From an uncultured Gammaproteobacteria bacterium (GTDB lineage: Bacteria > Patescibacteriota > Microgenomatia > Woykebacterales > RBG-16-39-9b): a DNA stretch of 64,000 nt. Below, piece by piece: positions 39,287-57,277 of the stretch (position 1 is its first letter; every line of letters starts with the position of its first letter). The stretch is taken from assembly GCA_964349395.1 (NCBI GenBank), contig CAYGGA010000001.1, positions 811 to 64,810 on the forward strand. Reading direction: 5' to 3'. The notes beneath the pieces are model-generated. The model was given only the letters and a program-made list of their open reading frames with translations. It was not told the origin of the DNA and did no database searches. Made by a program: the position numbers and the translations under genes.

Positions 39287-39361
39287 TGGAGCCGCCTCTC
39301 GGAATCGGACCGAGGACCTACTGTTTACGAAACAGTCGCTCTACCACTGAGCCAAGGCGGC
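39287..39361 (-). tRNA. tRNA-Thr (anticodon CGT), CCA encoded
   Basis: The reverse complement folds as GCCGCCT-TG-GCTC-AGTGGTA-GAGC-G-ACTGT-TTCGTAA-ACAGT-AGGTC-CTCGG-TCCGATT-CCGAG-AGGCGGC-T-CCA. T-loop is TCCGATT (C at position 55). Confidence 0.8.
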
Positions 39362-39628
39362 GTAAGAAAAACAGCGAATTTATTTGCTAGCACAACAACT
39401 ACTCTACCACTGAGTTATCTCGGCAATTCAAAACGGCGAGCTTTGCTTGCCAGCACAACAGTCTCTCTTCCGGGGAATTTTTTAACGCTACGGATGGAGC
39501 CTCGCTAAAATTCCCATCCAGGCAAAGCAGTTTGCCTGTCACCACTGAGCCAAGGCGGTTTGGAGCGGGTGAAGGGAACTGCCTTCGCGAGTTTTTGCTT
39601 GCGCAAAAAGCGAACCCTCGACTCTACC
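39362..39628 (-). other. tRNA-like fragments (tRNA pseudogenes or unconventional tRNA genes)
   Basis: Minus strand contains 5'-half-like GCCGAGATAACTCAGTGGTAGAGT and CCGCCTTGGCTCAGTGGT, and two ...GCTCCA 3'-end-like pieces. None gives a complete cloverleaf by hand. Confidence 0.3.
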
Positions 39629-39702
39629 TGGAGCGGGATACCAGAATCGGACTGGCGCCTCCGCCTTGGGAAGGCGGCATACTACCACTGTACTAATCCC
39701 GC
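39629..39702 (-). tRNA. tRNA-Gly (anticodon CCC), CCA encoded
   Basis: The reverse complement folds as GCGGGAT-TA-GTAC-AGTGGTA-GTAT-G-CCGCC-TTCCCAA-GGCGG-AGGC-GCCAG-TCCGATT-CTGGT-ATCCCGC-T-CCA. Confidence 0.8.
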
Positions 39703-39756
39703 ACGAGAATAACTCCGTACTACCGGATTTTATATCATCTTAAATGGGGTAGCAAC

Positions 39757-40440
39757 TTAAGGTATGATTAGGTGTTGTCCAGGACTGATTCCGGGGCGCC
39801 CGTTGGGGAGCGTGCGAATTTTATCTAGGTTAGCATCTCTGATTTTGTACCAATCAAAGCCTGAACCATAAAAATCGACCGCTATCTGCCAAAGAGTATC
39901 ACCGCTCGTGACAACATACTCCACATTTCCACTACTGGCCCTTGGTGCTGGACTGACAGTCGTGCTTGAAGACACTCCTGTTTCTGATTTTGGAATAATC
40001 AGTTTGTTTCCAGCATGGATAATACTGGGGTTAGTTAGCTTACTAGCCTCGGCAACCAGAGTCCATTTTTTAGGGTCATTGTAGAATTTCTGCGCGATTT
40101 TGCCCAAAGTGTCACCTTTCACTACAGTGTATTCTTGATTTTGAGTTACACTAGCTGCCCCACCCGGACTTACTTGAGCCGTAGTTTTTTCTGGAGTTGG
40201 GGTAGGTGTAGAAGTAACAGTAACTAGCGGAGTCTCTGTTGGGCTCAGTTCTGCAGATTCAGTGGCTTCCTCAAAAGTGGTTTCTTGGGGCACAGTATCT
40301 TTATTTACATTCAAAAAGAAGTTAAAGATTAAAAATCCAACCACAATAATCAATAGGGCGGCTAACCCACTGGCGAGTGCTGTTTGTCTTTCTTGGACGA
40401 ACCTAACAATTTGTTGCCAACCTTGTTCAAAACTTGGCAT
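39757..40440 (-). CDS. LysM-domain peptidoglycan-binding protein (two LysM repeats, N-terminal TM)
   Basis: YTVVKGDTLGKIAQKFY and YVVTSGDTLWQIAVDFY LysM signatures. Thr/Pro-rich linker. Confidence 0.7.
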   Translation of the reverse strand: MPSFEQGWQQIVRFVQERQTALASGLAALLIIVVGFLIFNFFLNVNKDTVPQETTFEEATESAELSPTETPLVTVTSTPTPTPEKTTAQVSPGGAASVTQNQEYTVVKGDTLGKIAQKFYNDPKKWTLVAEASKLTNPSIIHAGNKLIIPKSETGVSSSTTVSPAPRASSGNVEYVVTSGDTLWQIAVDFYGSGFDWYKIRDANLDKIRTLPNGRPGISPGQHLIIP

Positions 40441-40769
40441 AAATATTTTAGCTTCCTTTTCTTAGCCTGTCTTGCCTAGGCGCAGGAGTTTTCTGCAAGA
40501 AAAGCTTCTATTTTTAGTAGCAGGTGTTGAGGTAATCTCTCAATATTTTGTGGGGAGGTTGCTTCTCTCTTTAGCTTTTAATATTGGCAGGCTTCCTAGC
40601 AGATGTGAAAGCTGAGGCTTTGGCTCACTTTCATTCTGCTTAGAAGGCAAGGAATATATTTTTGACAAAAGCCAAAAACATATTCCTGGCGCCCTCGAGC
40701 GGATGCCGGAGCTGCGCTCCTGGCTTGCTTCGCAAGCGCGAACCGAATCAGTTCGACCGTTAAGGGTGC

Positions 40770-40804
40770 AAAACTAAAGTAGGTCTACGAACCACTTTAG
40801 TTTT
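40770..40804 (-). terminator. Hairpin immediately 3' of tRNA-Asp, with an 11-bp stem
   Basis: On the minus strand: AAAACTAAAGT-GGTTCGTAGACCT-ACTTTAGTTTT followed by G. Confidence 0.45.
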
Positions 40805-40880
40805 GGCGCCCTCGACCAGATTCGAACTGGCGATCTTCTGCTTGACAAGCAGACATGTTGGGCCACTACACCACGAGGGC
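40804..40880 (-). tRNA. tRNA-Asp (anticodon GTC), CCA encoded
   Basis: The reverse complement folds as GCCCTCG-TG-GTGT-AGTGGCCCA-ACAT-G-TCTGC-TTGTCAA-GCAGA-AGATC-GCCAG-TTCGAAT-CTGGT-CGAGGGC-G-CCA. Confidence 0.85.
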
Positions 40881-42435: not shown

Positions 42436-44142
42436 ATGGCACATACTTTTACCAACCAAGAAATCGCTGATCTACTCTCCTCCGTCGCTGCCGCATATAC
42501 CCTCAAAGGTTTTAATAGATTTCAAGTCATTGCTTATGAAAACGCTGCTTCAGGAGTGGAACATGCTACTTCTGACCTGAAAGATTTGTGGCAAGATGGC
42601 AAAATTGGCGAAATCCCAGGAGTTGGGGAGCATTTGGAGAAATACTTAAACGAGCTTTTTACTGAAGGTGAAGTTAAACACTTCGCTGAGGTCATGAAAG
42701 GTATTCCAAAGGCTGTTTTTCCACTTCTGAAAGTACCTGGAGTGGGGCCTAAAACAGCTCTAAAGATGGCTGAAGCTGGAGTAGGTAGTGTTGAAGATTT
42801 GAAAGCTAAGATTGAGTCCGGGGAACTATCTAAAAAAGGGTTCAGTGAGAAAAATCTTATTAATATTTTACGTGGAGTGGAGGAGTATTCCAGGAGAAGT
42901 AAAAGATTACTTTTGCCGATTGCGGCCGAAATAGCCGCCACTGTCCAGGAGTATTTAGAGAAAAGTCCTGACCTGCTCCGAATTGAGCCTTTAGGGAGTA
43001 TGAGGCGAAAACTAGCAACGATTGGTGATATTGACTTTGCGGTGGCTACCAAAAAACCAAAAGAAGTTATCGAGTACTTCACCCACTTCCCCGGAGCGCG
43101 AAGTGTGGTGGAAGCTGGAGAATTTTCCTCAACTATTCATCTAAAAAATGGCATCAATGTCGATATTTTGGTTCAGCCACCCGAGCATTACGGCTCACTT
43201 TTGCAGCATTTTACTGGTTCCAAGCATCACAATATCCACCTGCGGAATTACGCTTTAAAAAATGGCTACTCTGTCTCTGAACAAGGAGTAAAAGAGGTTA
43301 AAAGTGGTAAATTGATTGAGATGAAAAACGAGTCTGATGTTTACAAACTGTTGAATATGCAGACTCCCATTCCTGAAATCAGAGAGGACACAGGTGAGAT
43401 TGAGGCTGCTCTCAAGCACACTTTGCCCACTTTTATTGACGAAGGTGACTTGAGAGGAGATCTTCACACTCATACCAGCTGGAGTGATGGTCAAAACACA
43501 ATCAAGGAAATGGCTGATACCGCTTTAAAACTTGGTCGAGAATACATTGCCATTACTGATCACAGCTACCCCAGTCTACGTTTCAAGGACCGAATCAAGG
43601 CTATTGAACAATATAATGACTCACAGAGCGACCTCCGAGTAATATTTGGACTCGAAGTAAACATCAATGCTGATGCAACCTTGCAGGTACCAGATGAAGT
43701 ACTTAAAATGCACCAGTGGAATACGGCTTCCATCCACACTGCTTTTAGGCAGCCAAGAGAAGAAATGACAAGCAGGATTATAAAAGCTCTAGAACACCCT
43801 TATATTGATGCTCTTTCGCACCCGACTGGTCGGCTACTACTTGATAGAGAGGGGATTGATGCGGATTGGGAGAAAATCTTTACAGCGGCAGTAAAGCTAG
43901 GTAAAGTCATTGAAATCAATTCCTTCCCTAACCGTCTTGATTTACCGGACTCTTTAGTCAGAGAAGCAGTGAAATCCAAAGTCAAATTTGTCATTAATTC
44001 TGACTCTCACCAACCTTTTCACTTAGAATTGCTCCCGTTTGGAGTGTCAGTGGCCAGGCGAGGATGGGTAGAAAAAGACATGGTGCTAAACACCTTGCCT
44101 TGGAGTAAATTCAAGAGTATAATAAGGAAAGTTGAAAGTTGA
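42436..44142 (+). CDS. polX: DNA polymerase X-family protein with C-terminal PHP (polymerase/histidinol phosphatase) domain
   Basis: N-terminal PolX lyase/HhH (QEIADLLSSVAAAYTLKG...); Pol beta-like nucleotidyltransferase GDIDFAV; PHP HTHTSWSDG. Start taken as the ATG at 42436, after the pyrE stop. Confidence 0.8.
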   Translation: MAHTFTNQEIADLLSSVAAAYTLKGFNRFQVIAYENAASGVEHATSDLKDLWQDGKIGEIPGVGEHLEKYLNELFTEGEVKHFAEVMKGIPKAVFPLLKVPGVGPKTALKMAEAGVGSVEDLKAKIESGELSKKGFSEKNLINILRGVEEYSRRSKRLLLPIAAEIAATVQEYLEKSPDLLRIEPLGSMRRKLATIGDIDFAVATKKPKEVIEYFTHFPGARSVVEAGEFSSTIHLKNGINVDILVQPPEHYGSLLQHFTGSKHHNIHLRNYALKNGYSVSEQGVKEVKSGKLIEMKNESDVYKLLNMQTPIPEIREDTGEIEAALKHTLPTFIDEGDLRGDLHTHTSWSDGQNTIKEMADTALKLGREYIAITDHSYPSLRFKDRIKAIEQYNDSQSDLRVIFGLEVNINADATLQVPDEVLKMHQWNTASIHTAFRQPREEMTSRIIKALEHPYIDALSHPTGRLLLDREGIDADWEKIFTAAVKLGKVIEINSFPNRLDLPDSLVREAVKSKVKFVINSDSHQPFHLELLPFGVSVARRGWVEKDMVLNTLPWSKFKSIIRKVES

Positions 44143-44168
44143 AAGTTGAAAGTTGAAAGTTGAAAGTT
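44127..44168 (+). repeat. Heptanucleotide tandem array (GAAAGTT)x6 overlapping the polX stop codon
   Basis: Six perfect units counted by hand. The unit contains TGA, so stops occur in all three frames. Confidence 0.8.
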
Positions 44169-44216
44169 GGTACTTAGTGATTTTCAATTTTGAATTTTCA
44201 AGGGGGTGATAGTTTT

Positions 44217-44765
44217 ATGGAAATATGGGTTATTCTAATAGTTTTAGTAGTTCTAGCTCTCTTTGTCTTTGGGCTGTATAACACTTTAGTTACTGCACGC
44301 ATGCGCGTGAAAGAGGCCTGGAGTGGTATCGACGTCCAGCTCAAAAGACGGTCTTCCTTGATCCCAAATTTGGTGGAAGCTGTCAAAGGATATGCTAAAC
44401 ACGAGAAAGAAGTCTTCGAAAATGTTACTAAAGCTCGCAGTGCCATGATGGGTGCAAAAGGACCTGAAGATGCCGCGCAAGCCAACAATATGCTGACTGG
44501 GGCCTTAAAGACTCTGTTTGCAGTCGCTGAGGCCTATCCTGACCTCAAAGCCAGTGAAAACTTCAAAGATCTCCAAGGAGAACTTTCCGACACTGAAAGC
44601 AAAATTGCCTATTCTAGGCAGTTCTACAATTCCAATGTTCTAGATTACAACACCAAAATTCAAGTCTTCCCAAATGTTTTGTTAGCGGGAATGTTTGGTT
44701 TTAAACCAGAGGAATTCTTTGCCGCCACGGAAGAAGAGAAAAAGGATGTTGAAGTTAAGTTCTAA
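44217..44765 (+). CDS. LemA-family membrane protein
   Basis: N-terminal TM plus LemA-family conserved segments ([24 protein letters not shown]...[10 protein letters not shown]). AGGGGGTGA RBS before the ATG at 44217. Confidence 0.75.
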
Positions 44766-44836
44766 TCTGCCCACTTCCAAGGTAGGATCGCCATTGTTAC
44801 AAGGATAAGGAGCCTGCGTCACTTCGTTACTAAAGG

Positions 44837-44866
44837 AAAACCGTTGCCACTGTGTGCAACGGTTTA
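44837..44866. terminator. Bidirectional terminator-like hairpin (ccgttgc/gcaacgg, 7-bp stem) flanked by A- and T-runs
   Basis: Lies between convergent lemA (+) and the PRTase gene (-). Confidence 0.45.
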
Positions 44867-44881
44867 CCCTCTCCATGAAAA

Positions 44882-45517
44882 TTAATTCCCCCCACCAATG
44901 TGCGGTACAAATGGTGGGTCAGGGCAAAGTGGGCACTTACTTGGATCCCAGATTTGCCAACTCACTTTCACTAGGCTTAGAACCTCAAGTCCCCCAAGAT
45001 CAGCATTGGCAACACTGCGGTCACAGACTGACAAAATCACGACAGGGAATCCCCCTGCTTCTTGAACCGCTCGAAGAATTGGACCCACACTGGCACCAGT
45101 ACTGATAACGTCATTCATGATCACGACTTGGTTACCCTTTACGTAATCGCCGTCTTGGTGCGCAGTCTCTAGATCAACCGCGAATACTTGATCTCCCCTA
45201 GATGGGCGAGTCAGGACTGACCGAAACTCCCTTCTAGGATCAACTCGAATGAGGTATGAGCGAACCGGACTACCCCAGAGACCACCTTCGTTCAATGGTC
45301 CGACAATCGCTTTGGTTTTGATCCCCACCCTATTTTCAAACTCAAGTAGACGCACTACCAAGGAGGAGGCGATTACTTCTTGATACATCCTGGATGTGAT
45401 CAAATTCCGCTGATCAAAGTAGCCGTTGGTGTGGGCTCCGGATGGTAGACTCACATGTGTGTTTTCTACTAGAGCACCACATTTGCGCATTAGATTTGCA
45501 AGCTCGGGCTGGTCCAT
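44882..45517 (-). CDS. PyrE-like type I phosphoribosyltransferase paralogue with a C-terminal CxxC
   Basis: PRPP motif VVIMNDVISTGASV. Same architecture as the pyrE at 41724, including C-terminal SKCPLCPD. G+C-richer by eye. Confidence 0.6.
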   Translation of the reverse strand: MDQPELANLMRKCGALVENTHVSLPSGAHTNGYFDQRNLITSRMYQEVIASSLVVRLLEFENRVGIKTKAIVGPLNEGGLWGSPVRSYLIRVDPRREFRSVLTRPSRGDQVFAVDLETAHQDGDYVKGNQVVIMNDVISTGASVGPILRAVQEAGGFPVVILSVCDRSVANADLGGLEVLSLVKVSWQIWDPSKCPLCPDPPFVPHIGGGN

Positions 45518-45628
45518 CTCTTTTCCTCCAGTTTATTCATGAATATATTGCTCCTTCAGTTTTAAGTCAATGTGGCAGTTGTAATTCCGAATTGAAAAAA
45601 GAGGCTCAGAAAGGTACAATGACAAGAT

Positions 45629-46537
45629 ATGGCCGTACCCACAATATACAATCAAATAGCTGGTAACAAAACCAAGACATGGATCATCATGATTCTTTTT
45701 ACTATATTTATCACAGGAGTGGTTTATATCTTTGCTTTAGCATCTGGTTTCGAAGGTGTAGGGGCACTAAGTTATGTGGGAATCGCTCTGATTATCACTG
45801 GTGTAATCAACTTATTTTCTTATTACAACTCCGACAAAATGGTGATGGCTATCTCTGGTGCCAAGCAAATCACTCGTGAAAACAGTGAGTATTTGTTTGA
45901 AATTGTGGAAAATCTGGCCATTGGTAGTGGCCAACCAATGCCTAAAATCTACATCATTGAGGATACGGCTACTAATGCTTTTGCTACGGGCAGGGATCCA
46001 CAACATGCTTCCATCGCCTTCACCACTGGAATCATTGAGAAGTTAAATAAACTTGAGCTCGAAGGGGTAGCCGCCCACGAACTTTCTCATGTTAAAAATT
46101 ACGACACTAGACTGATGACAATTGTTTCAATTTTGGTGGGGACCATAGCTTTACTGGCTGATTTTTTCCTCAGGATGACATTCCATGGTCGGAGTCGGGA
46201 CAATAATAAAGGGGGTGCTATCTTTATGGTGCTTGCTTTGATCGCGGCTATCTTGGCGCCATTGGTAGCTCAGTTGATTCAACTCTCAATCTCCCGAAGA
46301 AGGGAGTATCTAGCCGATGCCTCCTCAGCCTTGTTGACTCGCTATCCGGATGCACTCGCTGACGCCCTGCTTAAAATATCTAGGGACCCTGAACCCCTAG
46401 AAGCCGCCAATAGAGGTACTGCTCATTTGTATATTGTGAACCCTTTGAAAGGCCAAGGAGCAGGCAAATGGCTAGCTTCTTTTTTTAATACTCACCCACC
46501 TATTGAAGATAGAGTCAAAGCCTTGAGGGACATGTAG
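45629..46537 (+). CDS. htpX: Zinc metalloprotease HtpX (M48 family)
   Basis: HELSH (HExxH) motif and TM segments; alternative ATG at 45689. Confidence 0.8.
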   Translation: MAVPTIYNQIAGNKTKTWIIMILFTIFITGVVYIFALASGFEGVGALSYVGIALIITGVINLFSYYNSDKMVMAISGAKQITRENSEYLFEIVENLAIGSGQPMPKIYIIEDTATNAFATGRDPQHASIAFTTGIIEKLNKLELEGVAAHELSHVKNYDTRLMTIVSILVGTIALLADFFLRMTFHGRSRDNNKGGAIFMVLALIAAILAPLVAQLIQLSISRRREYLADASSALLTRYPDALADALLKISRDPEPLEAANRGTAHLYIVNPLKGQGAGKWLASFFNTHPPIEDRVKALRDM

Positions 46538-46540
46538 AAT

Positions 46541-46577
46541 AAGTTAAAAGTTAAAAGTTAAAAGTTAAAAGTGTAAA
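46541..46577 (+). repeat. Heptanucleotide tandem array (GTTAAAA)x4 plus one degenerate unit, 5 nt after the htpX stop
   Basis: Units counted by hand. The unit contains TAA, so stops occur in all three frames. Confidence 0.75.
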
Positions 46578-46580
46578 GCT

Positions 46581-46883
46581 ATGAACATCAAAAAATTATC
46601 AGTTGAAGAAGTAAGGCATGTGGCAAAACTGGCCAACTTGGATTTGACAGATTCTGAAATTGAGAAATTCACTAAAGAGCTTGGTGAGGTAATTGATTAC
46701 AATGTAAGCCTGTTAAATTTGGTGGACACCTCAAAGGTGGAGCCTTTATATCAAGTAAATCCAGAAACCAATCGTGAAAGAGACGATGAAACCTCCCTTT
46801 CATTGACTCAGGATCAAGCCCTAAAAAATGCAGGGTCTGTGCACAATTTTTTTTTCAAAGTAAAGGCAGTTATTGATGAATGA
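46581..46883 (+). CDS. gatC: Asp/Glu-tRNA(Asn/Gln) amidotransferase subunit C
   Basis: 100 aa; GatC-like LSVEEVRHVAKLANLDLTDSE. Confidence 0.8.
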   Translation: MNIKKLSVEEVRHVAKLANLDLTDSEIEKFTKELGEVIDYNVSLLNLVDTSKVEPLYQVNPETNRERDDETSLSLTQDQALKNAGSVHNFFFKVKAVIDE

Positions 46884-48285
46884 GCTAACTGACCTATCCT
46901 TGAAGGAAACCTATGAAAAACTAAAGGGTAGGGAAGTCACCTCCGTGGAGGTGACCACCAGTTATCTGCAAAACATTGAAAAGCTGGATAAAAAGATTGA
47001 TTCTACTTTGCTCGTTACTTCTGACAGTGCAGTAGAAACTGCTAAAAAAGCAGACCTTTTAATTGCAGATAGTAGTCCTGTTTGTTGGCTCACCGGTACC
47101 CCCTTTCTAGCCAAAGATAATCTCTCTACTGAAGGTATTGTGACCACCGCAGCCTCAAAAATATTAGAAAATTATACCCCAGTTTATGACAGTACCGTAA
47201 TCGCCAACTTGAAGAAAGTAGTAGCCCCGATGCTAGGTAAAACCAATATGGACGAATTTGCCATGGGCGGGTCCACGGAGAAATCAGCTTTTAAAATAAC
47301 TAAAAATCCTTACGATTTAGACCGAGTTCCCGGCGGCTCATCCGGTGGCTCAGCTGCGGCGATCGCTTCTGACTTAGCTACTTTTGCTTTGGGAAGCGAT
47401 ACCGGGGGAAGTATCCGTCAACCAGCTTCTTTCTGCAGCGTGGTTGGCTTGAAACCAACCTATGGTCGTACTTCCCGCTTTGGGTTGATTGCCATGGGCA
47501 GTTCACTTGACCAGGTAGGGCCCATTACCAAGACTGTGGAAGATAGTGCTTTGGTTTTAAATATTATTGGTGGTTATGACGAAAAAGATGGGACTACTGT
47601 CAAAAAGGAGTTGCCTGATTATTCTAAAAATATTCACCATGGAGTGAAGGGTAAAAAAATCGGTGTTCCCAAAGAGTATTTTGGTGAGGGAATAGCTAGC
47701 GAAGTAAAAGAAGTCACCAAGAAGGCTCTGGAGCGATTGGAAGACTCAGGAGCAGAGCTGGTGGAAATTAGTTTGCCCAATACCAAAGAAAGCATTCCTG
47801 TTTACTATGTCATTATGGCAGCTGAAGTCTCCTCCAATTTAGCTAGATTTGACGGAGTGAGATTTGGAAAAGACCGTAGTCATTTTGGCGATGAGACAAA
47901 GAGAAGAATTATGCTTGGGACCTACGCCCTATCAAGCGGTTATTATGATGCTTATTATCTGAAGGCGGCAAAAGTCCGGCGACTGGTAAGAGAAGATTTT
48001 GATAAAGCGTTTGAAAACGTGGATCTCATTGCCGGACCAGTGGCCCCGACCACTGCCTTTAAAATTGGGGAAAAGACTTCGAGCCCCTTGCAAATGTATT
48101 TGGAAGACCTACTAACTGTCCCTATCTCCCTTGCCGGCTTGCCTGCTATCTCCGTCCCTGCTGGTTACGCTGACGATTTACCAGTAGGACTGCAGATAAT
48201 TGGGAAAATGTGGGGCGAAGAAGAGATTCTGCAAGCAGCTTACGTGGTGGAGAAGACCACCCACCGGATCAGGCCAAAATTATGA
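46873..48285 (+). CDS. gatA: Asp/Glu-tRNA(Asn/Gln) amidotransferase subunit A (amidase signature)
   Basis: Amidase signature GGSSGGSAAAIAS with the Ser-cisSer-Lys triad context. Confidence 0.85.
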   Translation: MMNELTDLSLKETYEKLKGREVTSVEVTTSYLQNIEKLDKKIDSTLLVTSDSAVETAKKADLLIADSSPVCWLTGTPFLAKDNLSTEGIVTTAASKILENYTPVYDSTVIANLKKVVAPMLGKTNMDEFAMGGSTEKSAFKITKNPYDLDRVPGGSSGGSAAAIASDLATFALGSDTGGSIRQPASFCSVVGLKPTYGRTSRFGLIAMGSSLDQVGPITKTVEDSALVLNIIGGYDEKDGTTVKKELPDYSKNIHHGVKGKKIGVPKEYFGEGIASEVKEVTKKALERLEDSGAELVEISLPNTKESIPVYYVIMAAEVSSNLARFDGVRFGKDRSHFGDETKRRIMLGTYALSSGYYDAYYLKAAKVRRLVREDFDKAFENVDLIAGPVAPTTAFKIGEKTSSPLQMYLEDLLTVPISLAGLPAISVPAGYADDLPVGLQIIGKMWGEEEILQAAYVVEKTTHRIRPKL

Positions 48286-48680
48286 ACTTACTCGAAATTC
48301 TATTGGGTAGAAAACTAATAAAGCGCGGTCGTTTAAATTACGAAACCTTAAAACTAGTGGAAGATAAATGGCCCCAGATTGACCAAGCTTTGCTATCTAA
48401 AAATCCAAGTAGTTTAAAACAAGCTGTGATTGAGGCTGACAAAATCGTTGATTTTGTTTTGAAACAGTTGTATCCAGATACGGAAACCATGGGTGAAAGA
48501 TTAAAATTGGCCAAAGAAAAATTTTTAAATAATAAAATTAGCTATGATGATTTGTGGTATGCCCATAAAATCAGGAATGAGTTGGTGCATAATACCAACT
48601 TCAACTTGCCATCGTTTGAAGTAGAGTCAATCATTGCCAAATTTGCCAAGGGGCTAGAGTTACTAGGAGCAAAACGATGA
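48282..48680 (+). CDS. Hypothetical alpha-helical protein with an Rx4H (HEPN-like) motif, inserted between gatA and gatB
   Basis: ATGA start/stop overlap with gatA and TGA/ATG overlap with gatB. YAHKIRNELVHN matches the Rx4-6H HEPN signature. Confidence 0.3.
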   Translation: MNLLEILLGRKLIKRGRLNYETLKLVEDKWPQIDQALLSKNPSSLKQAVIEADKIVDFVLKQLYPDTETMGERLKLAKEKFLNNKISYDDLWYAHKIRNELVHNTNFNLPSFEVESIIAKFAKGLELLGAKR

Positions 48681-50146
48681 TTGAGTTTGATTTAATCATA
48701 GGGTTAGAAGTTCATGTCCAACTGAACACTAAGTCAAAAATGTTTTGCTCGTGCTCAGCGTCCTACTTTGGTAAAGAGCCAAATACGCACACTTGTCCAG
48801 TTTGTCTCGGGCTGCCGGGAGCCTTACCGGTCGCCAATCGGGAGGCTATCAAGAAAGCCTTGACGACTGGTATAGCGTTGAGCTGCAGTCAGCCTGAGAT
48901 CTCGAAGTTTGATCGAAAAAATTACTTTTACCCAGATTTAGCCAAAGGATTTCAGATCTCCCAATTTGACCAACCCTTCTCCGTCAATGGGCATCTTCTG
49001 GTCGGGGATAGGAAAATTAGGATTAATCGTGCCCATTTGGAAGAAGATACTGGAAAGCTCATTCACGCAGACGTGGATGGCAGTAGAGTCTCGCTAGTAG
49101 ACTTTAATCGAAGTGGAGTACCGCTTCTAGAGATAGTCTCCGAGCCAGATATTACCAGTCCCGAAGAAGCGAGGGAATACGCGCAAAAACTAAATCTCAT
49201 CTTGAGAACCATCGGGGTAGCAGAAGGAGATATGGAAAAAGCTGGTATGAGGTTTGATGCCAATCTATCTTTAAAGCCCAAGGGTCAAAAAGAGTTGGGG
49301 ACTAAAGTGGAGATAAAAAATATTAACTCTTTCAGGTTTTTGGAAAAGGCAATTTATTATGAATTCTCCCGCCAGTCAGAATTACTGCAAAAGGGTGAAA
49401 AAATTGTTCAAGAAACCAGAGGATGGGTAGAGAGTAAAGGAGTTACTCAAACTCAGCGCTCCAAAGAGCAAGCCCATGATTATAGATATTTCCCGGAACC
49501 TGATATACCAACCTTTATTATGGACAATGAACACAAAAAAGATTATGGAATTGTTTTGCTCAAGTTACCTGACGCCCGTGTGGCCGATATTGTGAGACTT
49601 GGACTAGAAGAGAGGTTTGCCAAAACATTGGTTGATAAAGATTCTGATTCTTGGTTCATGACGCTGCTTCATGCGTATGAACAAACTGAGAGTAAGGCAC
49701 TTGGGTCTTCCCATTTCGACAACTCCAAAGCCCAAATCTTGGCACGCTGGATGATGGAGGTCTTTAGGATTTTAAAGGAAAAGAATCTCTTGCTAGCGGA
49801 GCTTAAAGGTGAAGCCTCTGGTGTTGCCAATATTCAATACCGAATTGATAAAGGTGAGCTAACTGCTGCCAATGCCAAGCAAGTTTTAGAGGAATATTTA
49901 TTAACTGGAGATTCAATCGATAGTTTAATTAAGAAATATGGTATAGGGGCCCCGAAAGATTTAAATTTGGATGAGATTGTTAGTCAAGTAATCCAAGTAA
50001 ATCAGAAAGCAGTAAATGATTATCAAAGTGGTAAAGACCAAGCTTTATTTTTTCTCGTCGGCCAAGTCGTCAAGGAGAGTCGAGGGGCAGCGAACGCGGA
50101 AGATGCTAAAAGAACTTTACTGGAGAAATTAAAAGATGCCCACTGA
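48677..50146 (+). CDS. gatB: Asp/Glu-tRNA(Asn/Gln) amidotransferase subunit B
   Basis: GatB N-terminus GLEVHVQLNTKSKMFC and CPVCLGLPGALP; C-terminal YqeY-like domain. Confidence 0.85.
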   Translation: MIEFDLIIGLEVHVQLNTKSKMFCSCSASYFGKEPNTHTCPVCLGLPGALPVANREAIKKALTTGIALSCSQPEISKFDRKNYFYPDLAKGFQISQFDQPFSVNGHLLVGDRKIRINRAHLEEDTGKLIHADVDGSRVSLVDFNRSGVPLLEIVSEPDITSPEEAREYAQKLNLILRTIGVAEGDMEKAGMRFDANLSLKPKGQKELGTKVEIKNINSFRFLEKAIYYEFSRQSELLQKGEKIVQETRGWVESKGVTQTQRSKEQAHDYRYFPEPDIPTFIMDNEHKKDYGIVLLKLPDARVADIVRLGLEERFAKTLVDKDSDSWFMTLLHAYEQTESKALGSSHFDNSKAQILARWMMEVFRILKEKNLLLAELKGEASGVANIQYRIDKGELTAANAKQVLEEYLLTGDSIDSLIKKYGIGAPKDLNLDEIVSQVIQVNQKAVNDYQSGKDQALFFLVGQVVKESRGAANAEDAKRTLLEKLKDAH

Positions 50147-51935
50147 GACTGAAACTAAAATCCAGTACCTTTTAATAGAAGACACCGAGTCTTTAAAAAA
50201 AATTATTCCGGAGATAGAAATCGCTAAAACTATTGGAATTGATACTGAAGGAACTTCCCTTGATCCTTACCAAGGGAAACTCCTCCTTTTGCAAATTGCT
50301 ACAGAAGATAAATCTTGGGTGATTGATTGTCTAAAGGTGGATCTAGAGGTTCTTAAACCAGTTCTAGAAGCTGATCGACCTCTCAAAATTGTCCAGAATG
50401 CTAAACATGACTACAAGCTTTTAAAGGTCCAAGCTGGTATCACGTTGGGAAGTATTTTTGATACTATGTTGGCCGAACGTTTGATCACCTGTGGGATTTC
50501 TCGCGAAATCTCCTTAAAAACCTTAGCAGAGAAATATTTGGGGCTAAACCTAGACAAAGAAGTGCGTAAAAGTTTTATTGAGTTTTATACTCCAGGAAGG
50601 AAATTGGTTTATTCAGAGGAACAATTGCGTTACGCGGCGCAGGATGCGGAAATTTTACTTCCAATTTTCAAAAAACAATTTGCTCAATTGCGGATTGACG
50701 ACTTGGTAGAGACGGCCAAATTAGAGTTCAATCTTGTGCCAGTTGTCAGTGAGATGGAAATAAGAGGGTCACTGCTTGATCAAAAAAGATGGCGAGCTCA
50801 TACGCAGGAGCTTAAAAAAATTCGCGACACGATCAACACCGATATGCAAAATGACTTACGACACCTAACCACTTATGCCAAAGTAGATCTATTTGGTAAT
50901 GTTGTTGACTCTATCAATCTAGATAGCCCGCTGCAGTTGTTGGAGGCTTTTAAAAAACTGGGGGTCGAAATACCCAATACCTCTGAAGCCACGCTGCAAA
51001 AAGTAGATCATCCCCTAGCTAAAAAACTACTCGAATACCGTGGTTATGAAAAAATGATTACTGCTTTTGGTGAGTCGATTTTAGACAAAGTAAACCCAGT
51101 TACCGGTCGGCTGCATCCGGATTTTATGCAGTTAGGGGCTGATACAGGAAGGTTTGCCTGTAATAATCCCAATCTGCAGCAAATACCCGCGGAGTCAGAA
51201 TTTAGAAGCTGCTTTATTGCTTCTCCTGGTTATAAAATGATTACTGCGGACTATTCTCAGATAGAGCTGCGCATTATGGCAGAGGTGAGCGAAGATCCCG
51301 CTTTCTTGGAAGCTTTTAATTCTGATGTGGATTTGCATACACTCACTGCTTCTCAGATGTTTAGGATTCCAGTCGAAGAGGTCAGCAAGGAACGCCGTTT
51401 TCAAGCTAAGTCGATTAATTTCGGCTTGATGTACGGCCGTGGACCCGCTTCCTTGGGGATGCAGATTGGTTTGAGTGTGGATGAATCACGCAAACTACTA
51501 GACGTGTATTTTAAGACCTATCGGCGGGTCAAGAAGTGGTTAGACGATATTGGACGGCTAGCGGTCAAACAAGGGTATATCCGTACTCTTGGAGGCCGTA
51601 AACGAATCTTTCAGTTGCCAGATCGGGACCACCCCGATTATGATAAACTTATAGCATCAATTGATCGGCAGGGCAAAAACACTCCTATTCAGGGTACGAG
51701 TGCGGATATTACCAAATATGCCTTGATCTACATTGCCAGGGAATTAAAGAAGCGCAACTTGGATGCCTTTTTGATTCATACTGTGCATGATGAGATTGTC
51801 TCGGAAGCACGGGAAGATATTGCCGATAGCGTTGCCAAAGTGGTCGAAGAACAAATGATTGAAGCTGGGAAAAAGCTTTTGAAACTAGTACCAGTGAAAG
51901 TGGATGTCCACGTCGCTGATATTTGGACTAAGTGA
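50136..51935 (+). CDS. polA: DNA polymerase I, Klenow-like (3'-5' exonuclease plus polymerase domains, no 5'-nuclease domain)
   Basis: Exo I DTEG and Exo II YAAQDAEIL; Pol A motif A (DYSQIELR), motif B (RRFQAKSINFGLMYG) and motif C (HTVHDE). Confidence 0.8.
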   Translation: MPTETETKIQYLLIEDTESLKKIIPEIEIAKTIGIDTEGTSLDPYQGKLLLLQIATEDKSWVIDCLKVDLEVLKPVLEADRPLKIVQNAKHDYKLLKVQAGITLGSIFDTMLAERLITCGISREISLKTLAEKYLGLNLDKEVRKSFIEFYTPGRKLVYSEEQLRYAAQDAEILLPIFKKQFAQLRIDDLVETAKLEFNLVPVVSEMEIRGSLLDQKRWRAHTQELKKIRDTINTDMQNDLRHLTTYAKVDLFGNVVDSINLDSPLQLLEAFKKLGVEIPNTSEATLQKVDHPLAKKLLEYRGYEKMITAFGESILDKVNPVTGRLHPDFMQLGADTGRFACNNPNLQQIPAESEFRSCFIASPGYKMITADYSQIELRIMAEVSEDPAFLEAFNSDVDLHTLTASQMFRIPVEEVSKERRFQAKSINFGLMYGRGPASLGMQIGLSVDESRKLLDVYFKTYRRVKKWLDDIGRLAVKQGYIRTLGGRKRIFQLPDRDHPDYDKLIASIDRQGKNTPIQGTSADITKYALIYIARELKKRNLDAFLIHTVHDEIVSEAREDIADSVAKVVEEQMIEAGKKLLKLVPVKVDVHVADIWTK

Positions 51936-51941
51936 TCTGAC

Positions 51942-52910
51942 ATGTTAACTGCCTTAACTGACAAAATTGGTGATGTTTTAAGCCTCTGGCTGATTCCACA
52001 CCATCGCAACAATCACCACCCTCATGCCACCCGGTATACTGGTCTCAGTATTTTTTTGGTCGGGATTTTGCTTTCTCAAATAGTGACCAATGTAGCCACT
52101 GGTAAAGATCCGATGACTTTAGGGTTTGCTACCAATGTGGTGAAAGACCAACTTATTACCCTCACCAACCAACAGCGTAGTAGTCATGGTGCCCAAGCGG
52201 TAGTGGAGAGCCCTGCTCTATCCCAGGCTGCTCTTCTGAAAGCTCAAGACATGTTTGCCAAAAACTATTGGGCTCATGTTGGGCCTGATGGCACTAGTCC
52301 CTGGCATTTTTTTGAAATTGTTGGCTATAAGTACATTTATGCCGGAGAAAATCTCGCGCGCGGCTTTGATACCTCTTCTGGGGTGGTAGACGGGTGGATG
52401 AACTCTCCGTCGCATCGTGATAATTTGCTCAACCCCAATTACCAACATATTGGTATGGCGGTCTTAAATGGCCAGATGGGTGGAGAATCTACGACTTTAG
52501 TCGTACAGTTGTTTGGTACTAGTTCAGTTTCCCCAGCTGCGCTAGCCCCCTCGAGTCCAAAACCAGCTACTAGTATTGCTTCGACTCCGACTCCCAAACC
52601 GACAATTGTCGCCATTGGAACTAGCGCTGCTTCCGAAGTTTTGCCCATTACCCCAACTGGGATCTTTAAGTCCCCAACTAACAATGTGGTTCAGGTCTTA
52701 ACCTCTTTCCGACCGCTTGGGGCTTTGAATGCCAATCAGCAAGTCTTGCTTTTAAGTCTGGGGATTTTAGCAGCGATCTTCCTAGTTGATGCATTAATTT
52801 TAATAAGAAAGAGATTGTTCCATACTCGTCCACATGTTATATTACATGGCTTAGTAGTTTTGACTCTCATCAGTTTTATACTCCTAAGTGGCAAGGGATT
52901 GATATTGTGA
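51942..52910 (+). CDS. CAP/SCP (PR-1-like, YkwD-type) domain protein with TM anchors
   Basis: CAP-domain motifs HRDNLLNPNYQHIGMAV and YWAHVGPDG. Ser/Pro/Thr-rich linker and a C-terminal TM. Confidence 0.65.
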   Translation: MLTALTDKIGDVLSLWLIPHHRNNHHPHATRYTGLSIFLVGILLSQIVTNVATGKDPMTLGFATNVVKDQLITLTNQQRSSHGAQAVVESPALSQAALLKAQDMFAKNYWAHVGPDGTSPWHFFEIVGYKYIYAGENLARGFDTSSGVVDGWMNSPSHRDNLLNPNYQHIGMAVLNGQMGGESTTLVVQLFGTSSVSPAALAPSSPKPATSIASTPTPKPTIVAIGTSAASEVLPITPTGIFKSPTNNVVQVLTSFRPLGALNANQQVLLLSLGILAAIFLVDALILIRKRLFHTRPHVILHGLVVLTLISFILLSGKGLIL

Positions 52911-52912
52911 TT

Positions 52913-53167
52913 ATGTCAAAGAAAATCTTAATCGAACATTTATTGGAATACTTACTATTACTTGTGGTTTTAACCTTGGGTTATCTGATCATAAGATTTG
53001 CTCCGGGCGCAGCTTGGAAAGTGATTCTTACCTTTACGGTGGCCTCTTTTTATCTCGGATACGGCTCTTACCATCATTTTAATGAAGAGAATTTTAAAAT
53101 AACTACGGTTTTGGAGTACAGCTTGGTGGCCACTATTATCGCGGTAACTCTACTGCTAGTTTTTTAG
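52913..53167 (+). CDS. Small two-TM membrane protein
   Basis: About 84 aa with two hydrophobic helices; overlaps the stop of the upstream gene. Confidence 0.3.
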   Translation: MSKKILIEHLLEYLLLLVVLTLGYLIIRFAPGAAWKVILTFTVASFYLGYGSYHHFNEENFKITTVLEYSLVATIIAVTLLLVF

Positions 53168-53212
53168 TTAATTTCTTGTCAACAGTTATTTTTTCTGGTA
53201 CAATGCGCACTC

Positions 53213-53515
53213 ATGGAAAAAGACACTCTTACTATAAAACCTGGCGCCACACTGAGGGTGACCACTAAAGTTAAAGAAGGTACTAAAGAAAGACTGCAAA
53301 ATTTTGACGGCATCGTGATTTCGGTGCGCGGTCGAGGTGACAGTCAGACTTTTACGGTACGCAAAATTGGGGCCACTGGTGTTGGCGTGGAGCGAATCTG
53401 GCCGACAAATTCTCCCAATATTGCTAAAATTGAAGTCAAAAGTGAACCTCGGGTTAGACGAGCCAAACTCTACTATCTCCGTGATCGTTTGGGTAAAGCC
53501 GCCACTAAAATCTAG
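53213..53515 (+). CDS. rplS: 50S ribosomal protein L19
   Basis: FDGIVISVRGRGDSQTFTVRKI...GVGVERIWP matches the L19 signature region. Confidence 0.85.
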   Translation: MEKDTLTIKPGATLRVTTKVKEGTKERLQNFDGIVISVRGRGDSQTFTVRKIGATGVGVERIWPTNSPNIAKIEVKSEPRVRRAKLYYLRDRLGKAATKI

Positions 53516-53575
53516 TTGTTAGTTGTTAGTTGTTAGTTGTTAGTTGTTAGTTGTTAGTTGTTAGTTGTTAGTTTG
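53513..53575 (+). repeat. Heptanucleotide tandem array (TAGTTGT)x8 plus one degenerate unit, starting at the rplS stop codon
   Basis: Units counted by hand. The unit contains TAG, so stops occur in all three frames. Confidence 0.8.
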
Positions 53576-53618
53576 TGGTAATTTGTGTCTACCAACTACG
53601 AACTATATACTACTAACT

Positions 53619-54236
53619 ATGAAGGCTGCTAATTGGCTTTTTGAACAAAGCTTATGGAACCAAGGTTACCGATATGTCTGTGGGGTCGATGAAGTTGGCC
53701 GTGGTGCTTGGGCAGGACCGGTCGTATCTGCAGCCGTAGTTTTCCCACCAAAAATAAAATTCCCACAGTCACTTTTTGACTCAAAATTACTTCTGCCTCA
53801 AAAAAGAGAAGAACTGTCCTCCATTATTCAGCACTTAGCTGCTTACATTGGCATCGGAGTTATAGGCGTTTCCGATATTAATCGGCGGGGAATTGGAGTC
53901 GCCTCACAAATGTCGTACCTACAAGCGATTAAAAAACTTCCCCAAGTTCCGGATTATTTTTTAGTGGATGCTTTTTATGTAAAGTATCTGCCCAAATTAA
54001 AGCAGTTACCGATCGTCAAGGGGGATCAGATTTCAGCCAGTATCGCCGCGGCCTCCATCGTCGCCAAGGTCTTCCGTGACCAAATAATGCGAGAACTGCA
54101 CGTGTCTTTACCAAGGTATCGATTTGACTTACATAAAGGGTATGGGACCAAACAACATCAAAAGCTAATTACCAAACATGGCTTTTCAGAGATCCATAGA
54201 AGAAGTTTTAATCTGGATTATTTGGTAAACAGTTAA
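53619..54236 (+). CDS. rnhB: Ribonuclease HII
   Basis: CGVDEVGRGAWAGPVVSAAVVF (the DEVGRG active site). ATG at 53619 chosen downstream of the heptamer array. Confidence 0.8.
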   Translation: MKAANWLFEQSLWNQGYRYVCGVDEVGRGAWAGPVVSAAVVFPPKIKFPQSLFDSKLLLPQKREELSSIIQHLAAYIGIGVIGVSDINRRGIGVASQMSYLQAIKKLPQVPDYFLVDAFYVKYLPKLKQLPIVKGDQISASIAAASIVAKVFRDQIMRELHVSLPRYRFDLHKGYGTKQHQKLITKHGFSEIHRRSFNLDYLVNS

Positions 54237-54251
54237 TATCAGCGACCCATT

Positions 54252-54617
54252 ATGACATTCCAACGAAAGAAGTTAGGACAATTAGGAGAAGATTTGGCAG
54301 CCAAATTTCTTCAGGCCAATGGCTACAAGATAATAGAGAGAAATTTTAGGAGCAAAGTAGGCGAGATAGATATTGTGGCCGAAGAAGATGGGTGGTTGGT
54401 ACTGGTTGAGGTAAAATGCCGTTTCCCCGGGCAGTTCTCACTACCTGAAGAAGCTATTACTCAGAATAAAATTAGACATATTGCTCGAGCAGGTGAGTAC
54501 TACCAGATGGTCAAAAACTCCCCACTTGCTGGGCCGAGAATTGATGTAGTTGCCATTGAATTTGGAGAAGATGGCAAACTAACACGAGAAGAGATTATTA
54601 AAAACGTCACGTCATGA
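54252..54617 (+). CDS. yraN: YraN-family (UPF0102) endonuclease
   Basis: LGQLGEDLAAKFLQANGYKIIERNFR...GEIDIV...LVLVEVKCR pattern of YraN; frequent rnhB neighbour. Confidence 0.7.
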   Translation: MTFQRKKLGQLGEDLAAKFLQANGYKIIERNFRSKVGEIDIVAEEDGWLVLVEVKCRFPGQFSLPEEAITQNKIRHIARAGEYYQMVKNSPLAGPRIDVVAIEFGEDGKLTREEIIKNVTS

Positions 54618-57202: not shown

Positions 57203-57277
57203 GGGCGCGTAGCTCAACGGCAGAGTAGGGGCCTTTTAAGCCTTTGGTTGTGGGTTCGAATCCCACCGCGCTCACCA
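57203..57277 (+). tRNA. tRNA-Lys (anticodon TTT), CCA encoded
   Basis: Cloverleaf by hand: GGGCGCG-TA-GCTC-AACGGCA-GAGT-A-GGGGC-CTTTTAA-GCCTT-TGGTT-GTGGG-TTCGAAT-CCCAC-CGCGCTC-A-CCA. Confidence 0.8.

Follow-up and report, generated by a model that had tools for sequence, protein, structure and literature searches.

Heptanucleotide tandem arrays at gene boundaries of a patescibacterial contig: stop codons that follow from composition, and inverted partners at two of three arrays

Tandemly repeated heptanucleotides in non-coding DNA, the STRR sequences of cyanobacteria, were reportedly described by Mazel and colleagues in 1990 (cited in PMC4692102) and resemble the arrays analyzed here, although they are said to comprise a few fixed units dispersed over many loci of heterocystous cyanobacteria, which the present arrays do not. 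Heptanucleotides are reported to be the most abundant class of long simple-sequence repeats (SSRs) in many prokaryotes, and polymerase slippage has been proposed as their source (Mrazek et al. 2007, as summarized in PMC4679880 and PMC4692102). As far as the summaries of Mrazek, Guo and Shah (2007) go, these long SSRs match the arrays described below: short units are joined head to tail to a length far above chance, period 7 is favored over neighboring periods, location is mostly intergenic, units are locus specific, and length and sequence vary between close relatives. The emphasis of the surveys, as summarized there, is a different one, on Burkholderia, cyanobacteria, actinobacteria, and Xanthomonas, and our literature search found no paper on heptamer repeats in the candidate phyla radiation. 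Arrays that pair with a degenerate inverted counterpart receive only a passing mention, for Xanthomonas, in the portions of the long-SSR literature considered here.

In Haemophilus influenzae, the heptamer SSR (ATCTTTC)n lies just upstream of hmw1A and hmw2A, changes in copy number by whole units, and provides the left arm of a long, imperfect hairpin in the RNA, opposite a complementary stretch that is degenerate or not a repeat; all of this has a likeness here. The gene product under hmw control is a surface adhesin, the array comprises at least 11 repeats, and RNase III cleavage and phase variation have been demonstrated experimentally (PMC12721329), whereas the present arrays are sequence features beside housekeeping genes, with 5-12 units. 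The TAACTGA direct repeats of marine Beggiatoaceae, some cyanobacteria, and Bacteroidetes likewise carry stop codons in each forward frame, can overlap the upstream gene's stop codon by as many as about two units, occur in ribosomal-protein operons, and lie a few nucleotides before starts that mostly lack a Shine-Dalgarno sequence; they differ in that one unit occupies 169 loci in one genome, where each locus here has its own unit, and no hairpin partner has been described for them (PMC4679880). The GGGAATC / GGGGAYT repeats of Xanthomonas and Nostoc are also intergenic heptamer SSRs that vary in length and sequence between close relatives at the same position and form inverted pairs in some cases, but they are G-rich and quadruplex-capable, with one unit family dominating the genome, while the units studied here have no G runs (PMC4692102).

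The stretch analyzed (the window) spans 64 kb from a Curtissbacteria-like bacterium of the candidate phyla radiation, and all three heptamer arrays listed by the earlier note were confirmed at their positions, in short spacers between housekeeping genes (Table 1). The flanking genes were identified by Pfam as PolX, LemA, M48/HtpX, GatC, L19, and RNase HII, and each array touches a stop codon on the + strand. These are the only perfect tandem repeats with a period of 5-15 and at least three copies in the window, against an expectation of 0.0 from codon-block shuffles. All three were recovered in independent assemblies; an assembly artifact is ruled out, and the earlier note was correct that the arrays are not CRISPR. 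Its further statement on related units is borne out for arrays 1 and 2, which match at 6/7 positions in phase (P ~0.016 under random composition and 0.14 when their own letters are kept); in metagenomes, G and A variants of this type of unit occur mixed within single arrays. The statement does not extend to the array 3 unit, whose 5/7 and 4/7 matches to the other two are not beyond chance.

Table 1. Arrays, partners, and neighboring signals, by position in the window
Feature	Position	Strand	Remarks
Promoter-like TTGCCT-17-TATAAT	44095-44123	+	10/12 consensus matches; consensus match only
Array 1, (GAAAGTT)6.1	44127-44169	+	100% matches; 5' arm of hairpin 1
polX TGA stop	44140-44142	+	Within second unit of array 1
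Array 1 partner, ATTTTCA ATTTTGA ATTTTCA A	44180-44201	+	Degenerate inverted heptamer array (TRF); 3' arm of hairpin 1
lemA Shine-Dalgarno-like GGGGGTGA	44202-44209	+	Directly after 3' arm of hairpin 1
lemA ATG	44217-44219	+	Start codon
htpX TAG stop	46535-46537	+	Array 2 begins 4 nt after
Array 2, (AAGTTAA = GTTAAAA)~5 (5.1)	46541-46577	+	Perfect over 46541-46572
gatC ATG	46581-46583	+	Array 2 ends 3 nt before
Array 3, (TAGTTGT)8.7	53513-53573	+	100% matches; 5' arm of hairpin 3
Array 3 partner, CTACCAA CTACGAA CTATATA CTACTAA CTA	53589-53619	+	Degenerate inverted heptamer array; 3' arm of hairpin 3
rnhB (RNase HII) ATG	53619-53621	+	Its A is the last base of the array 3 partner

The earlier note had missed the inverted degenerate partners that lie downstream of arrays 1 and 3. 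Each of these arrays is the 5' arm of an imperfect hairpin whose 3' arm is a shorter, degenerate inverted heptamer array. Array 1 codes for the final PolX residues, and the first three bases of array 3 are the rplS TAG stop. The arms of hairpin 1 are 20 nt long and 85% complementary in 3 registers (partner test, P = 0.003), those of hairpin 3 are 31 nt long and 74% complementary in 5 registers (P = 0.017), and both partners were confirmed by a second, independent analysis. Partners were detected for 8/15 intergenic arrays at P <= 0.04 and for 0/12 coding arrays at P < 0.1. The layout of array plus inverted partner recurs in relatives and metagenomes, and many intergenic heptamer arrays have it.

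The 3' arm of hairpin 1 ends precisely where the lemA Shine-Dalgarno-like sequence begins, and that of hairpin 3 ends at the rnhB ATG, which has no Shine-Dalgarno-like sequence upstream. As RNA, hairpin 1 folded at -22.5 kcal/mol on the + strand (z -4.2) and at -7.7 kcal/mol on the opposite strand; it is much stronger on the + strand because array and partner pair through G.U pairs, in several 7-nt registers. The promoter-like -10 element ends 3 nt upstream of array 1, which would fall in the lemA 5'-UTR if this site were active; the regional total of promoter-like sites was not above shuffles. These features are consistent with a cis-regulatory role in which arrays 1 and 3 would fold with their partners into RNA stem-loops, intercistronic or within a 5'-UTR, that are cut by a double-strand RNase or occlude the downstream start region, with copy number setting stem length and register and so tuning LemA or RNase HII output, as in the 5'-UTR of H. 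influenzae hmw. The recurrence of the layout points the same way, as does the experimental precedent of a heptamer SSR serving as the left arm of an RNase III-processed 5'-UTR hairpin (PMC12721329). We nevertheless hold this role to be possible but doubtful. The advantage of the sense over the antisense fold was inconsistent across 10 hairpins, and the stability of hairpin 3 did not significantly exceed that of shuffled sequence (z -1.2 to -1.8). Moreover, the hairpins are not conserved at the polX-lemA and rplS-rnhB loci of relatives, the neighbors are housekeeping genes without an obvious need of stochastic tuning, and the available hairpin copies are all identical and hence offer no covariation.

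The location of the arrays at gene 3' ends was borne out by a positional set of 88 (GTTRAAA)n arrays from metagenomes. These started a median of 5 nt past the same-strand stop, compared with medians of 43-73 nt in the other three gene-array configurations, and the median distance to the downstream start was 73 nt; 14 of 34 same-strand arrays supplied the upstream stop themselves. All 15 coding (GTTRAAA)n arrays lay on the antisense strand. Where an inverted partner accompanied (GTTRAAA)n, it was T-rich and located 3' in 20/20 cases, and some hairpin loops (for example, those of L161 and L119) contained a GC-rich stem with a T run after it. Together with the A-first layout of array 1, such features would suit hairpins that terminate transcription or stabilize transcripts at gene 3' ends, with an A-rich arm followed by a U-rich arm, like a bidirectional intrinsic terminator or an E. 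coli REP element, and with arms lengthened by slippage. We consider this unlikely, since a terminator scan found nothing at arrays 1, 2, and 3, in agreement with the earlier note, which saw no obvious terminator in them. Stems 1 and 3 are AU/GU-rich and lack a U tract after them, the polarity of array 3 is reversed (its U/G-rich arm comes first), and polarity is mixed among other units. Convergent pairs were not enriched among the genes flanking the 20 partner cases (about 4 convergent, 7 co-directional, and 3-4 divergent, tallied by eye), and array 2 has no hairpin.

Each of arrays 1-3 places stop codons in all three + frames within 21 nt, and many (GTTRAAA)n arrays provide the stop of the upstream gene. 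On this basis the arrays could be regarded as all-frame translational stop walls, an idea raised by the earlier note; selection would have favored them for stopping ribosomes that, where the upstream gene ends, read through its stop or shift frame. However, when the letters of the units were permuted, stops in all three frames arose at P = 0.93, 1.0, and 0.51 for arrays 1, 2, and 3, respectively: the stop content follows from base composition, not design. Sense-strand stop walls among the intergenic arrays of relatives showed no significant excess (11/25 versus 9.2 expected), and stop-free units were found in arrays of both spacers and genes. The stop-containing property was also not conserved in the orthologues of array 2 (in L003, L006, L005, and L002), which are free of stops and are translated as the GatC N terminus. 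Finally, GTTAAAA arrays have stops on both strands and yet keep their partner on the 3' side; stops therefore do not explain the polarity. We regard selection for stop walls as extremely improbable.

Array 2 fills the 43-nt htpX-gatC spacer and has no inverted partner (no inverted repeats; partner test, P = 0.45). Its RNA is unstructured, falling below all 200 shuffles in structure (z +2.4), and no Shine-Dalgarno-like sequence precedes the gatC ATG. Array 2 is itself untranslated and probably descends from an A-rich heptamer array that encodes the beginning of GatC in relatives. The low structure of its RNA would suit an array of periodic sites for an RNA- or DNA-binding protein, such as ribosomal protein S1, a cold-shock or CsrA-type protein (as proposed for the TAACTGA repeats), or a HutP-like protein that would recognize UAG at 7-nt intervals; the unit of array 3, UAG plus 4 nt, resembles the spacing of HutP sites. 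Arrays 2 and 3, moreover, lie just upstream of starts without a Shine-Dalgarno-like sequence, like the TAACTGA repeats of Beggiatoaceae (PMC4679880). However, each locus has a unit of its own and orthologous arrays differ in theirs, which speaks against a single sequence-specific binder, and heptamer arrays are present in coding regions too, making such a function very unlikely.

Patescibacteria-like DNA totaling 732 kb contained 12 period-7 arrays, 3 of them in the window and 9 in 668 kb of further loci, whereas 446 kb from other phyla contained none. The excess was confined to period 7, with periods 5, 6, and 8-12 at or near shuffle expectation, and the repeat unit changed from locus to locus and also between orthologous arrays. 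The polX-lemA and rplS-rnhB spacers of relatives at or below 85% RplS identity are short and contain neither array 1 nor array 3, while an 89% relative (L094) carries a degenerate TAGTTGG TAGTTAA TAGCAGG TAGTTGG that begins at its own TAG stop. Array 3 is polymorphic in copy number, with 8.7 copies in the window versus 11.7 in L081 and L082, between identical flanks and with a difference of exactly three units (21 bp); the two values could stem from different assemblies rather than alleles. Two short-read contigs (L090 and L091) break within array 3. The 21-bp difference, the absence of arrays 1 and 3 from relatives, and the excess at period 7 only support the suggestion of the earlier note that the arrays are slipped-strand hotspots. 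The comparison of copy number between contigs bore this out for array 3 and not for arrays 1 and 2, which were identical in all 3-7 contigs of the same population (L083-L085 for array 1, L083-L089 for array 2), and instability is therefore demonstrated for only one of the three arrays.

On balance, we think it somewhat more probable than not that arrays 1-3 are heptanucleotide SSRs of the class already known from bacteria, made by slippage and kept where they do no harm. Strand slippage would create and resize the arrays, and a tolerance filter would let them last only where a 7-nt repeat is harmless, which in this compact genome would mean short intergenic spacers and the last few codons of genes. 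Because successive 7-nt units fall into different reading frames, all three in turn, an array with TAA, TAG, or TGA in its unit would not survive within a gene and would be left overlapping a stop codon or immediately 3' of one. The presence of stops is itself a plain outcome of A/T/G-rich units. In relatives, the heptamer arrays within genes have only units without a sense-strand stop and occupy variable loops in GatB, pyruvate kinase, MurE, and FemAB.

Slippage and tolerance leave the favored period of 7 unexplained, and the tolerance filter alone fails to explain either the closeness to the upstream stop (5 versus 73 nt) or the 3'-side partners in 20/20 cases. The hairpin layout probably assists slipping, and the length of a stem-loop in the transcript would shift with copy number, which may in turn affect expression. 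The closeness to the upstream stop and the 3'-side partner rule hint at selection on RNA or DNA structure.

Three heptanucleotide arrays, designated arrays 1 to 3, separate polX from lemA, htpX from gatC, and rplS from rnhB, respectively (see the table). They are the sole perfect tandem repeats of period 5 to 15 with at least three copies in the 64 kb; codon-block shuffles gave an expectation of 0.0 perfect arrays, against the 3 observed. Pfam searches of the flanking genes identified a PolX-type polymerase, LemA, an M48/HtpX peptidase, GatC, ribosomal protein L19, and RNase HII. Apart from the final 5 codons of polX, the arrays lie outside reading frames: array 2 runs from 4 nt past the htpX TAG stop to 3 nt short of the gatC ATG, and the rplS TAG stop forms the first bases of array 3. 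All three were recovered in independent assemblies and are therefore not artefacts. A convincing relationship exists only between the units of arrays 1 and 2, and a motif common to all three units was rejected. The closest HtpX relatives (66-70% identity) belong to Candidatus Curtissbacteria and other Patescibacteria MAGs, and the gene order polX-lemA...htpX-gatCAB...rplS-rnhB is kept in relatives. Judging from sequence, the host of the arrays is a Curtissbacteria-like member of the candidate phyla radiation.

Heptanucleotide arrays and associated features in the window and in relatives (L-numbers denote contigs of relatives)
Feature	Position	Strand	Description
Array 1, (GAAAGTT)6.1	44127-44169	+	TRF, 100% matches
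polX TGA stop	44140-44142	+	inside second unit of array 1
Array 1 partner, ATTTTCA ATTTTGA ATTTTCA A	44180-44201	+	inverted unit, 10 nt past array 1
Array 2, (GTTAAAA; TRF: AAGTTAA)5.1	46541-46577, perfect over 46541-46572	+	TRF, 96% matches
Array 3, (TAGTTGT)8.7	53513-53573	+	TRF, 100% matches
Array 3 partner, CTACCAA CTACGAA CTATATA CTACTAA CTA	53589-53619	+	downstream of array 3
htpX-gatC junction array	L003:1679-1713		GCAAAAA/GCAGAAA units
htpX-gatC junction array	L006:7946-7981		ACAAGAA/ACAAGAG units
htpX-gatC junction array	L005 and L002		just past htpX stop, degenerate YAAAAGN units
In-gene arrays, perfect or near-perfect	L008:5090-5119, L011:15328-15352, L013:15960-15991, L030:12490-12521, L029:3780-3811, L030:7188-7219, L029:2285-2319		conserved genes of Patescibacteria relatives

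Elsewhere in the window, two-copy heptamers occur at shuffle level (6 observed versus 5.7); AAACTTC is repeated 2.3 times at 13481-13496, its reverse complement GAAGTTT resembling the array 1 unit. A 72-nt segment occurs twice in direct orientation (18634-18705 and 18735-18806, 101 nt apart); the two copies are 86% identical overall and identical over the first ~45 nt, and each contains AGATTTA twice. Five tRNA genes are present, with Thr-CGT, Gly-CCC, and Asp-GTC clustered at 39287-40880 on the reverse strand and Val-CAC and Lys-TTT on the forward strand (31743-31818 and 57203-57277). GC skew is positive over nearly all of the window.

The earlier note had suggested, among other roles, that the arrays could act as walls of stop codons in all three forward frames. 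The seven columns of each array were permuted, a procedure that keeps letters and periodicity; the three-frame stops of arrays 1, 2, and 3 recurred with P = 0.93, 1.0, and 0.51, respectively. Likewise, 11 of 25 intergenic period-7/14/21 arrays in relatives formed all-frame walls on the sense strand, compared with 9.2 expected and 6 on the antisense strand. The stop content of the arrays is compositional. Nor was the stop-containing property conserved in other copies, an outcome that the earlier note itself had named as refuting, the relatives of array 2 at the htpX-gatC junction being stop-free and translated. Selection for stop walls is rejected by the permutation test together with these translated orthologues, and the arrays are almost certainly not stop walls.

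Decisive in this respect are heptamer arrays related to array 2 at the htpX-gatC junction of relatives. In L003, L006, L005, and L002, they contain no stops and are translated, giving GatC a Lys-rich N-terminal tail. In the window lineage, the unit TAAAAGT presents TAA in every frame; array 2 is therefore kept out of the reading frame, with the gatC start lying just past it. The junction sequences indicate that one ancestral A-rich heptamer array is translated in several relatives and, its unit having gained TAA, is not translated in the window.

According to Mrazek et al. 2007, as cited in PMC4679880 and PMC4692102, heptanucleotides outnumber every other class of long simple-sequence repeats (SSRs) in many prokaryotes, and polymerase slippage was put forward as the cause. 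The arrays agree with this picture: they consist of uninterrupted head-to-tail copies of a unit within the 1-11 nt of long SSRs and are longer than composition predicts, and period 7 exceeds its neighbouring periods in frequency, chiefly in intergenic DNA. Perfect arrays with three or more copies and periods 5, 6, 7, and 8 numbered 0, 0, 3, and 0 in the window and 3, 1, 9, and 1 in 668 kb of Patescibacteria-like loci, where 0.0 heptamer arrays were expected; 446 kb from other phyla contained zero perfect heptamer arrays of this length. At a TRF score of at least 40, 37 period-7/14/21 arrays were intergenic versus 25 coding, non-coding DNA amounting to ~8%. The repeat class is specific to period 7 and to the lineage, and its units vary from locus to locus. 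After masking of the three arrays, no general lag-7 signal was left in intergenic DNA. The arrays are therefore discrete features, and the possibility that spacers are built of decayed arrays with a general 7-nt periodicity was rejected. At the level of sequence, the arrays fit the definition of the heptanucleotide long-SSR class, with copy-number variation seen in one of the three only, and a Curtissbacteria-like member of the candidate phyla radiation is added to the bacteria known to have an excess of heptanucleotide repeats. A literature search found no paper on such repeats in candidate-phyla-radiation genomes and none with these unit sequences.

Several described repeat types were compared with the arrays. 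The TAACTGA repeats of Beggiatoaceae (MacGregor 2015, PMC4679880) show the pattern described in the earlier note: they contain all-frame stops, overlap upstream stops, and precede start codons without a Shine-Dalgarno sequence. That family, however, has the single unit TAACTGA at many loci, whereas GAAAGTT, GTTAAAA, and TAGTTGT occur at one locus each within the window, which excludes membership. Cyanobacterial STRR sequences consist of a few fixed heptamers at many loci of a cyanobacterial host; here, the unit differs per locus, is not dispersed, and the host is Curtissbacteria-like, so that this class is excluded as well. CRISPR arrays, with repeats of ~25-40 nt and unique spacers of similar length, are excluded by the 7-nt units lying head to tail with no spacers. 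A contingency (phase-variation) locus would have its SSR within the frame of a surface or restriction-modification gene or between the -35 and -10 elements of such a gene; it is excluded by the position of the arrays between polX/lemA, htpX/gatC, and rplS/rnhB, outside frames save for the polX end.

Copy number differed at array 3, with 11.7 copies in two contigs (L081 and L082) versus 8.7 in the window and identical flanks; both contigs are from the same population, and their encoded proteins are identical. Two further contigs, L090 and L091, start within array 3. Arrays 1 and 2 were unchanged in every copy at hand (3-7 same-population contigs). In a search for further alleles in other assemblies, identical proteins were found only on same-population contigs, and a flank-anchored search of JGI metagenomes yielded none. 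In relatives with RplS identity of 85% or less, the rplS-rnhB spacer measures 3-118 nt and holds no array, and the polX-lemA spacer of relatives is mostly without one; the possibility that syntenic relatives conserve arrays 1 and 3 was thus rejected. In L094, an 89% relative, TAGTTGG TAGTTAA TAGCAGG TAGTTGG runs from its own TAG stop to the end of the contig. Together, the array-free spacers and this degenerate array indicate that array 3 is young and underwent recent homogenisation in the window. A short repeat at the rnhB end of another relative (L093:9180-9194, AGTTGAA x2.1) was rejected as a second copy of array 1, being a coding C-terminus, LVES*. This end, ...GTT GAA AGT TGA, has the same unit as array 1, stop included, and a C-terminal VES* as in the window PolX; it resembles a seed of two copies where the gene ends, yet is ordinary coding sequence.

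Heptamer arrays also occur inside genes of relatives. Those with stop-free units add 7-residue-periodic inserts to variable loops of GatB, pyruvate kinase, MurE, and a FemAB-family protein. At one GatB loop, the unit is CGGCAAC in one genome and ACAACTG in another at the same position; the window GatB has short loops at this insert site. Because stop-free arrays occur inside genes, with differing units at one GatB loop, a tolerance filter is supported, by which arrays may arise anywhere and those with stops on the sense strand would survive nowhere but in spacers and the final few codons of genes. We lean towards regarding the arrays as slippage-generated SSRs kept where they are tolerated, with compositional stop content and a position set by this filter. 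Slippage would generate the heptanucleotide SSRs, which would persist where tolerated, and their location at stops would follow from the filter and the very short spacers of the genome. The apparent tie to stop codons would be explained in that a 7-nt unit with a stop survives only at or past a gene end.

Metagenome contigs were scanned for GTTGAAA/GTTAAAA arrays, (GTTRAAA)n, of 3.4 copies or more. At least 120 contigs were found, and 88 arrays were analysed using crude gene calls (longest ORFs of at least 60 codons). Among the matches listed, 73 arrays were intergenic and 15 coding, and all 15 coding arrays were on the stop-free antisense strand. Also among the matches listed, arrays with a same-strand upstream gene started a median of 5 nt past its stop, and 14 of 34 supplied that stop themselves; the medians for the other three gene-array configurations were 43-73 nt. 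For these listed matches, the enrichment at gene 3' ends anticipated by the earlier note is borne out.

Furthermore, arrays 1 and 3 are the 5' arms of hairpins that the earlier note had missed, the 3' arm in each case being a downstream degenerate inverted heptamer array, or partner. The array 1 partner carries one C-to-T change per unit relative to the inverted unit, so that pairing involves G.U pairs. The 20-nt arms of hairpin 1 are 85% complementary and can pair in three registers; its RNA fold reaches -22.5 kcal/mol (z -4.2) on the forward strand versus -7.7 kcal/mol on the reverse strand. Hairpin 3 has 31-nt arms that are 74% complementary in five registers, and its fold is barely better than shuffles (z -1.2 to -1.8). 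The 3' arm of hairpin 1 stops exactly at the Shine-Dalgarno-like GGGGGTGA of lemA, and that of hairpin 3 exactly at the A of the rnhB ATG. No inverted partner was found for array 2, the RNA of which has less structure than all 200 shuffles. At L092:1-37, the contig start of a relative with 81% RNase HII identity, a period-8 sequence lies just before the rnhB ATG (TACAACCC TACAACCT TAGAACCC TATTACCT); the array 3 partner arm seems to have been kept there with another period. In the window and relatives combined, 8 of 15 intergenic arrays had an inverted periodic partner within 80 nt (P <= 0.04), and 0 of 12 coding arrays had one at P < 0.1. The array-plus-partner layout is general among intergenic arrays. 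If slippage is the source of the arrays, the partner would mainly favour slipped intermediates, and any effect on expression would be secondary.

The main rival reading, possible but doubtful, takes hairpins 1 and 3 for cis-regulatory RNA stem-loops with a length set by copy number. The closest precedent is the hmw 5'-UTR of H. influenzae, in which RNase III cuts a long hairpin with ten (AUCUUUC) units as its left arm, and copy-number change needs both the hairpin and transcription (PMC12721329). Arrays 1 and 3, but not array 2, share with hmw an array as one arm and a complementary downstream arm. The hmw system also has a transcribed 5'-UTR, RNase III cleavage, and copy-number-dependent expression, for which the sole lead here is a promoter-like TTGCCT-17-TATAAT at 44095-44123. 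This site, a consensus match only, lies inside the polX 3' end and ends 3 nt before array 1, which would place array 1 in a lemA 5'-UTR; comparable 10-of-12 matches occur just upstream of htpX (45592-45620) and rplS (53176-53204). Across 10 hairpins, no consistent folding advantage was seen for the sense over the antisense strand; RNA-level selection is therefore not established, and the case for it from folding was rejected. A covariance-model search of 43500-54500 against Rfam 15 gave a sole match, mir-279, at chance level (E = 0.34) and away from the arrays, so a known RNA family was rejected too. That the arrays serve as periodic protein-binding sites is very unlikely.

Among the matches listed, 20 of the 73 intergenic (GTTRAAA)n arrays of the metagenome contigs (L099-L178) had a significant inverted partner, and in all 20 it lay on the 3' side, so that the purine-rich arm precedes the TTTYAAC arm. 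Polarity is mixed among heptamer hairpins built from other units. In some of the (GTTRAAA)n loops, such as those of L161 and L119, a T run follows a GC-rich stem, in line with a role of the arrays as terminators or stabilisers. However, a by-eye tally of genes flanking the (GTTRAAA)n hairpins (~4 convergent, 7 co-directional, and 3-4 divergent among the matches listed) does not favour terminators, and a terminator scan of the window found no terminator-like site overlapping any of the three arrays. The scan and the AU/GU-rich composition of stems 1 and 3, which have no U run behind them, exclude an intrinsic (Rho-independent) terminator with its short GC-rich stem-loop and U tract, and the terminator or stabiliser reading as a whole is quite improbable.

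At present, the finding amounts to a neat example and not to a discovery, and three by-products may prove more valuable than the initial observation. The htpX-gatC junction would be an example of slippage repeats shifting a coding-region boundary. Core enzymes such as GatB gain loop insertions with a 7-residue period from heptamer arrays within their genes. The third is the inverted partners, common among intergenic arrays, with their polarity, which in the GTTGAAA family is strict; only the hairpin architecture and this polarity rule might become something new. It is conceivable, though unlikely, that intergenic heptamer arrays, each paired with a decayed inverted array, constitute a widespread, undescribed type of "register-shifting" hairpin at the ends of genes, present in candidate-phyla-radiation bacteria and many other uncultured lineages. 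Their signature would be the 20/20 purine-rich-first GTTGAAA/TTTCAAC polarity and the tight abutment to same-strand stops seen among the matches listed. Multi-register stems with a slippage-set length would then adjust termination, transcript stability, or translation downstream in a heritable yet reversible way, housekeeping genes included. If the hairpin architecture is functional, the hmw mechanism of Haemophilus would be generalised well beyond pathogen surface genes.
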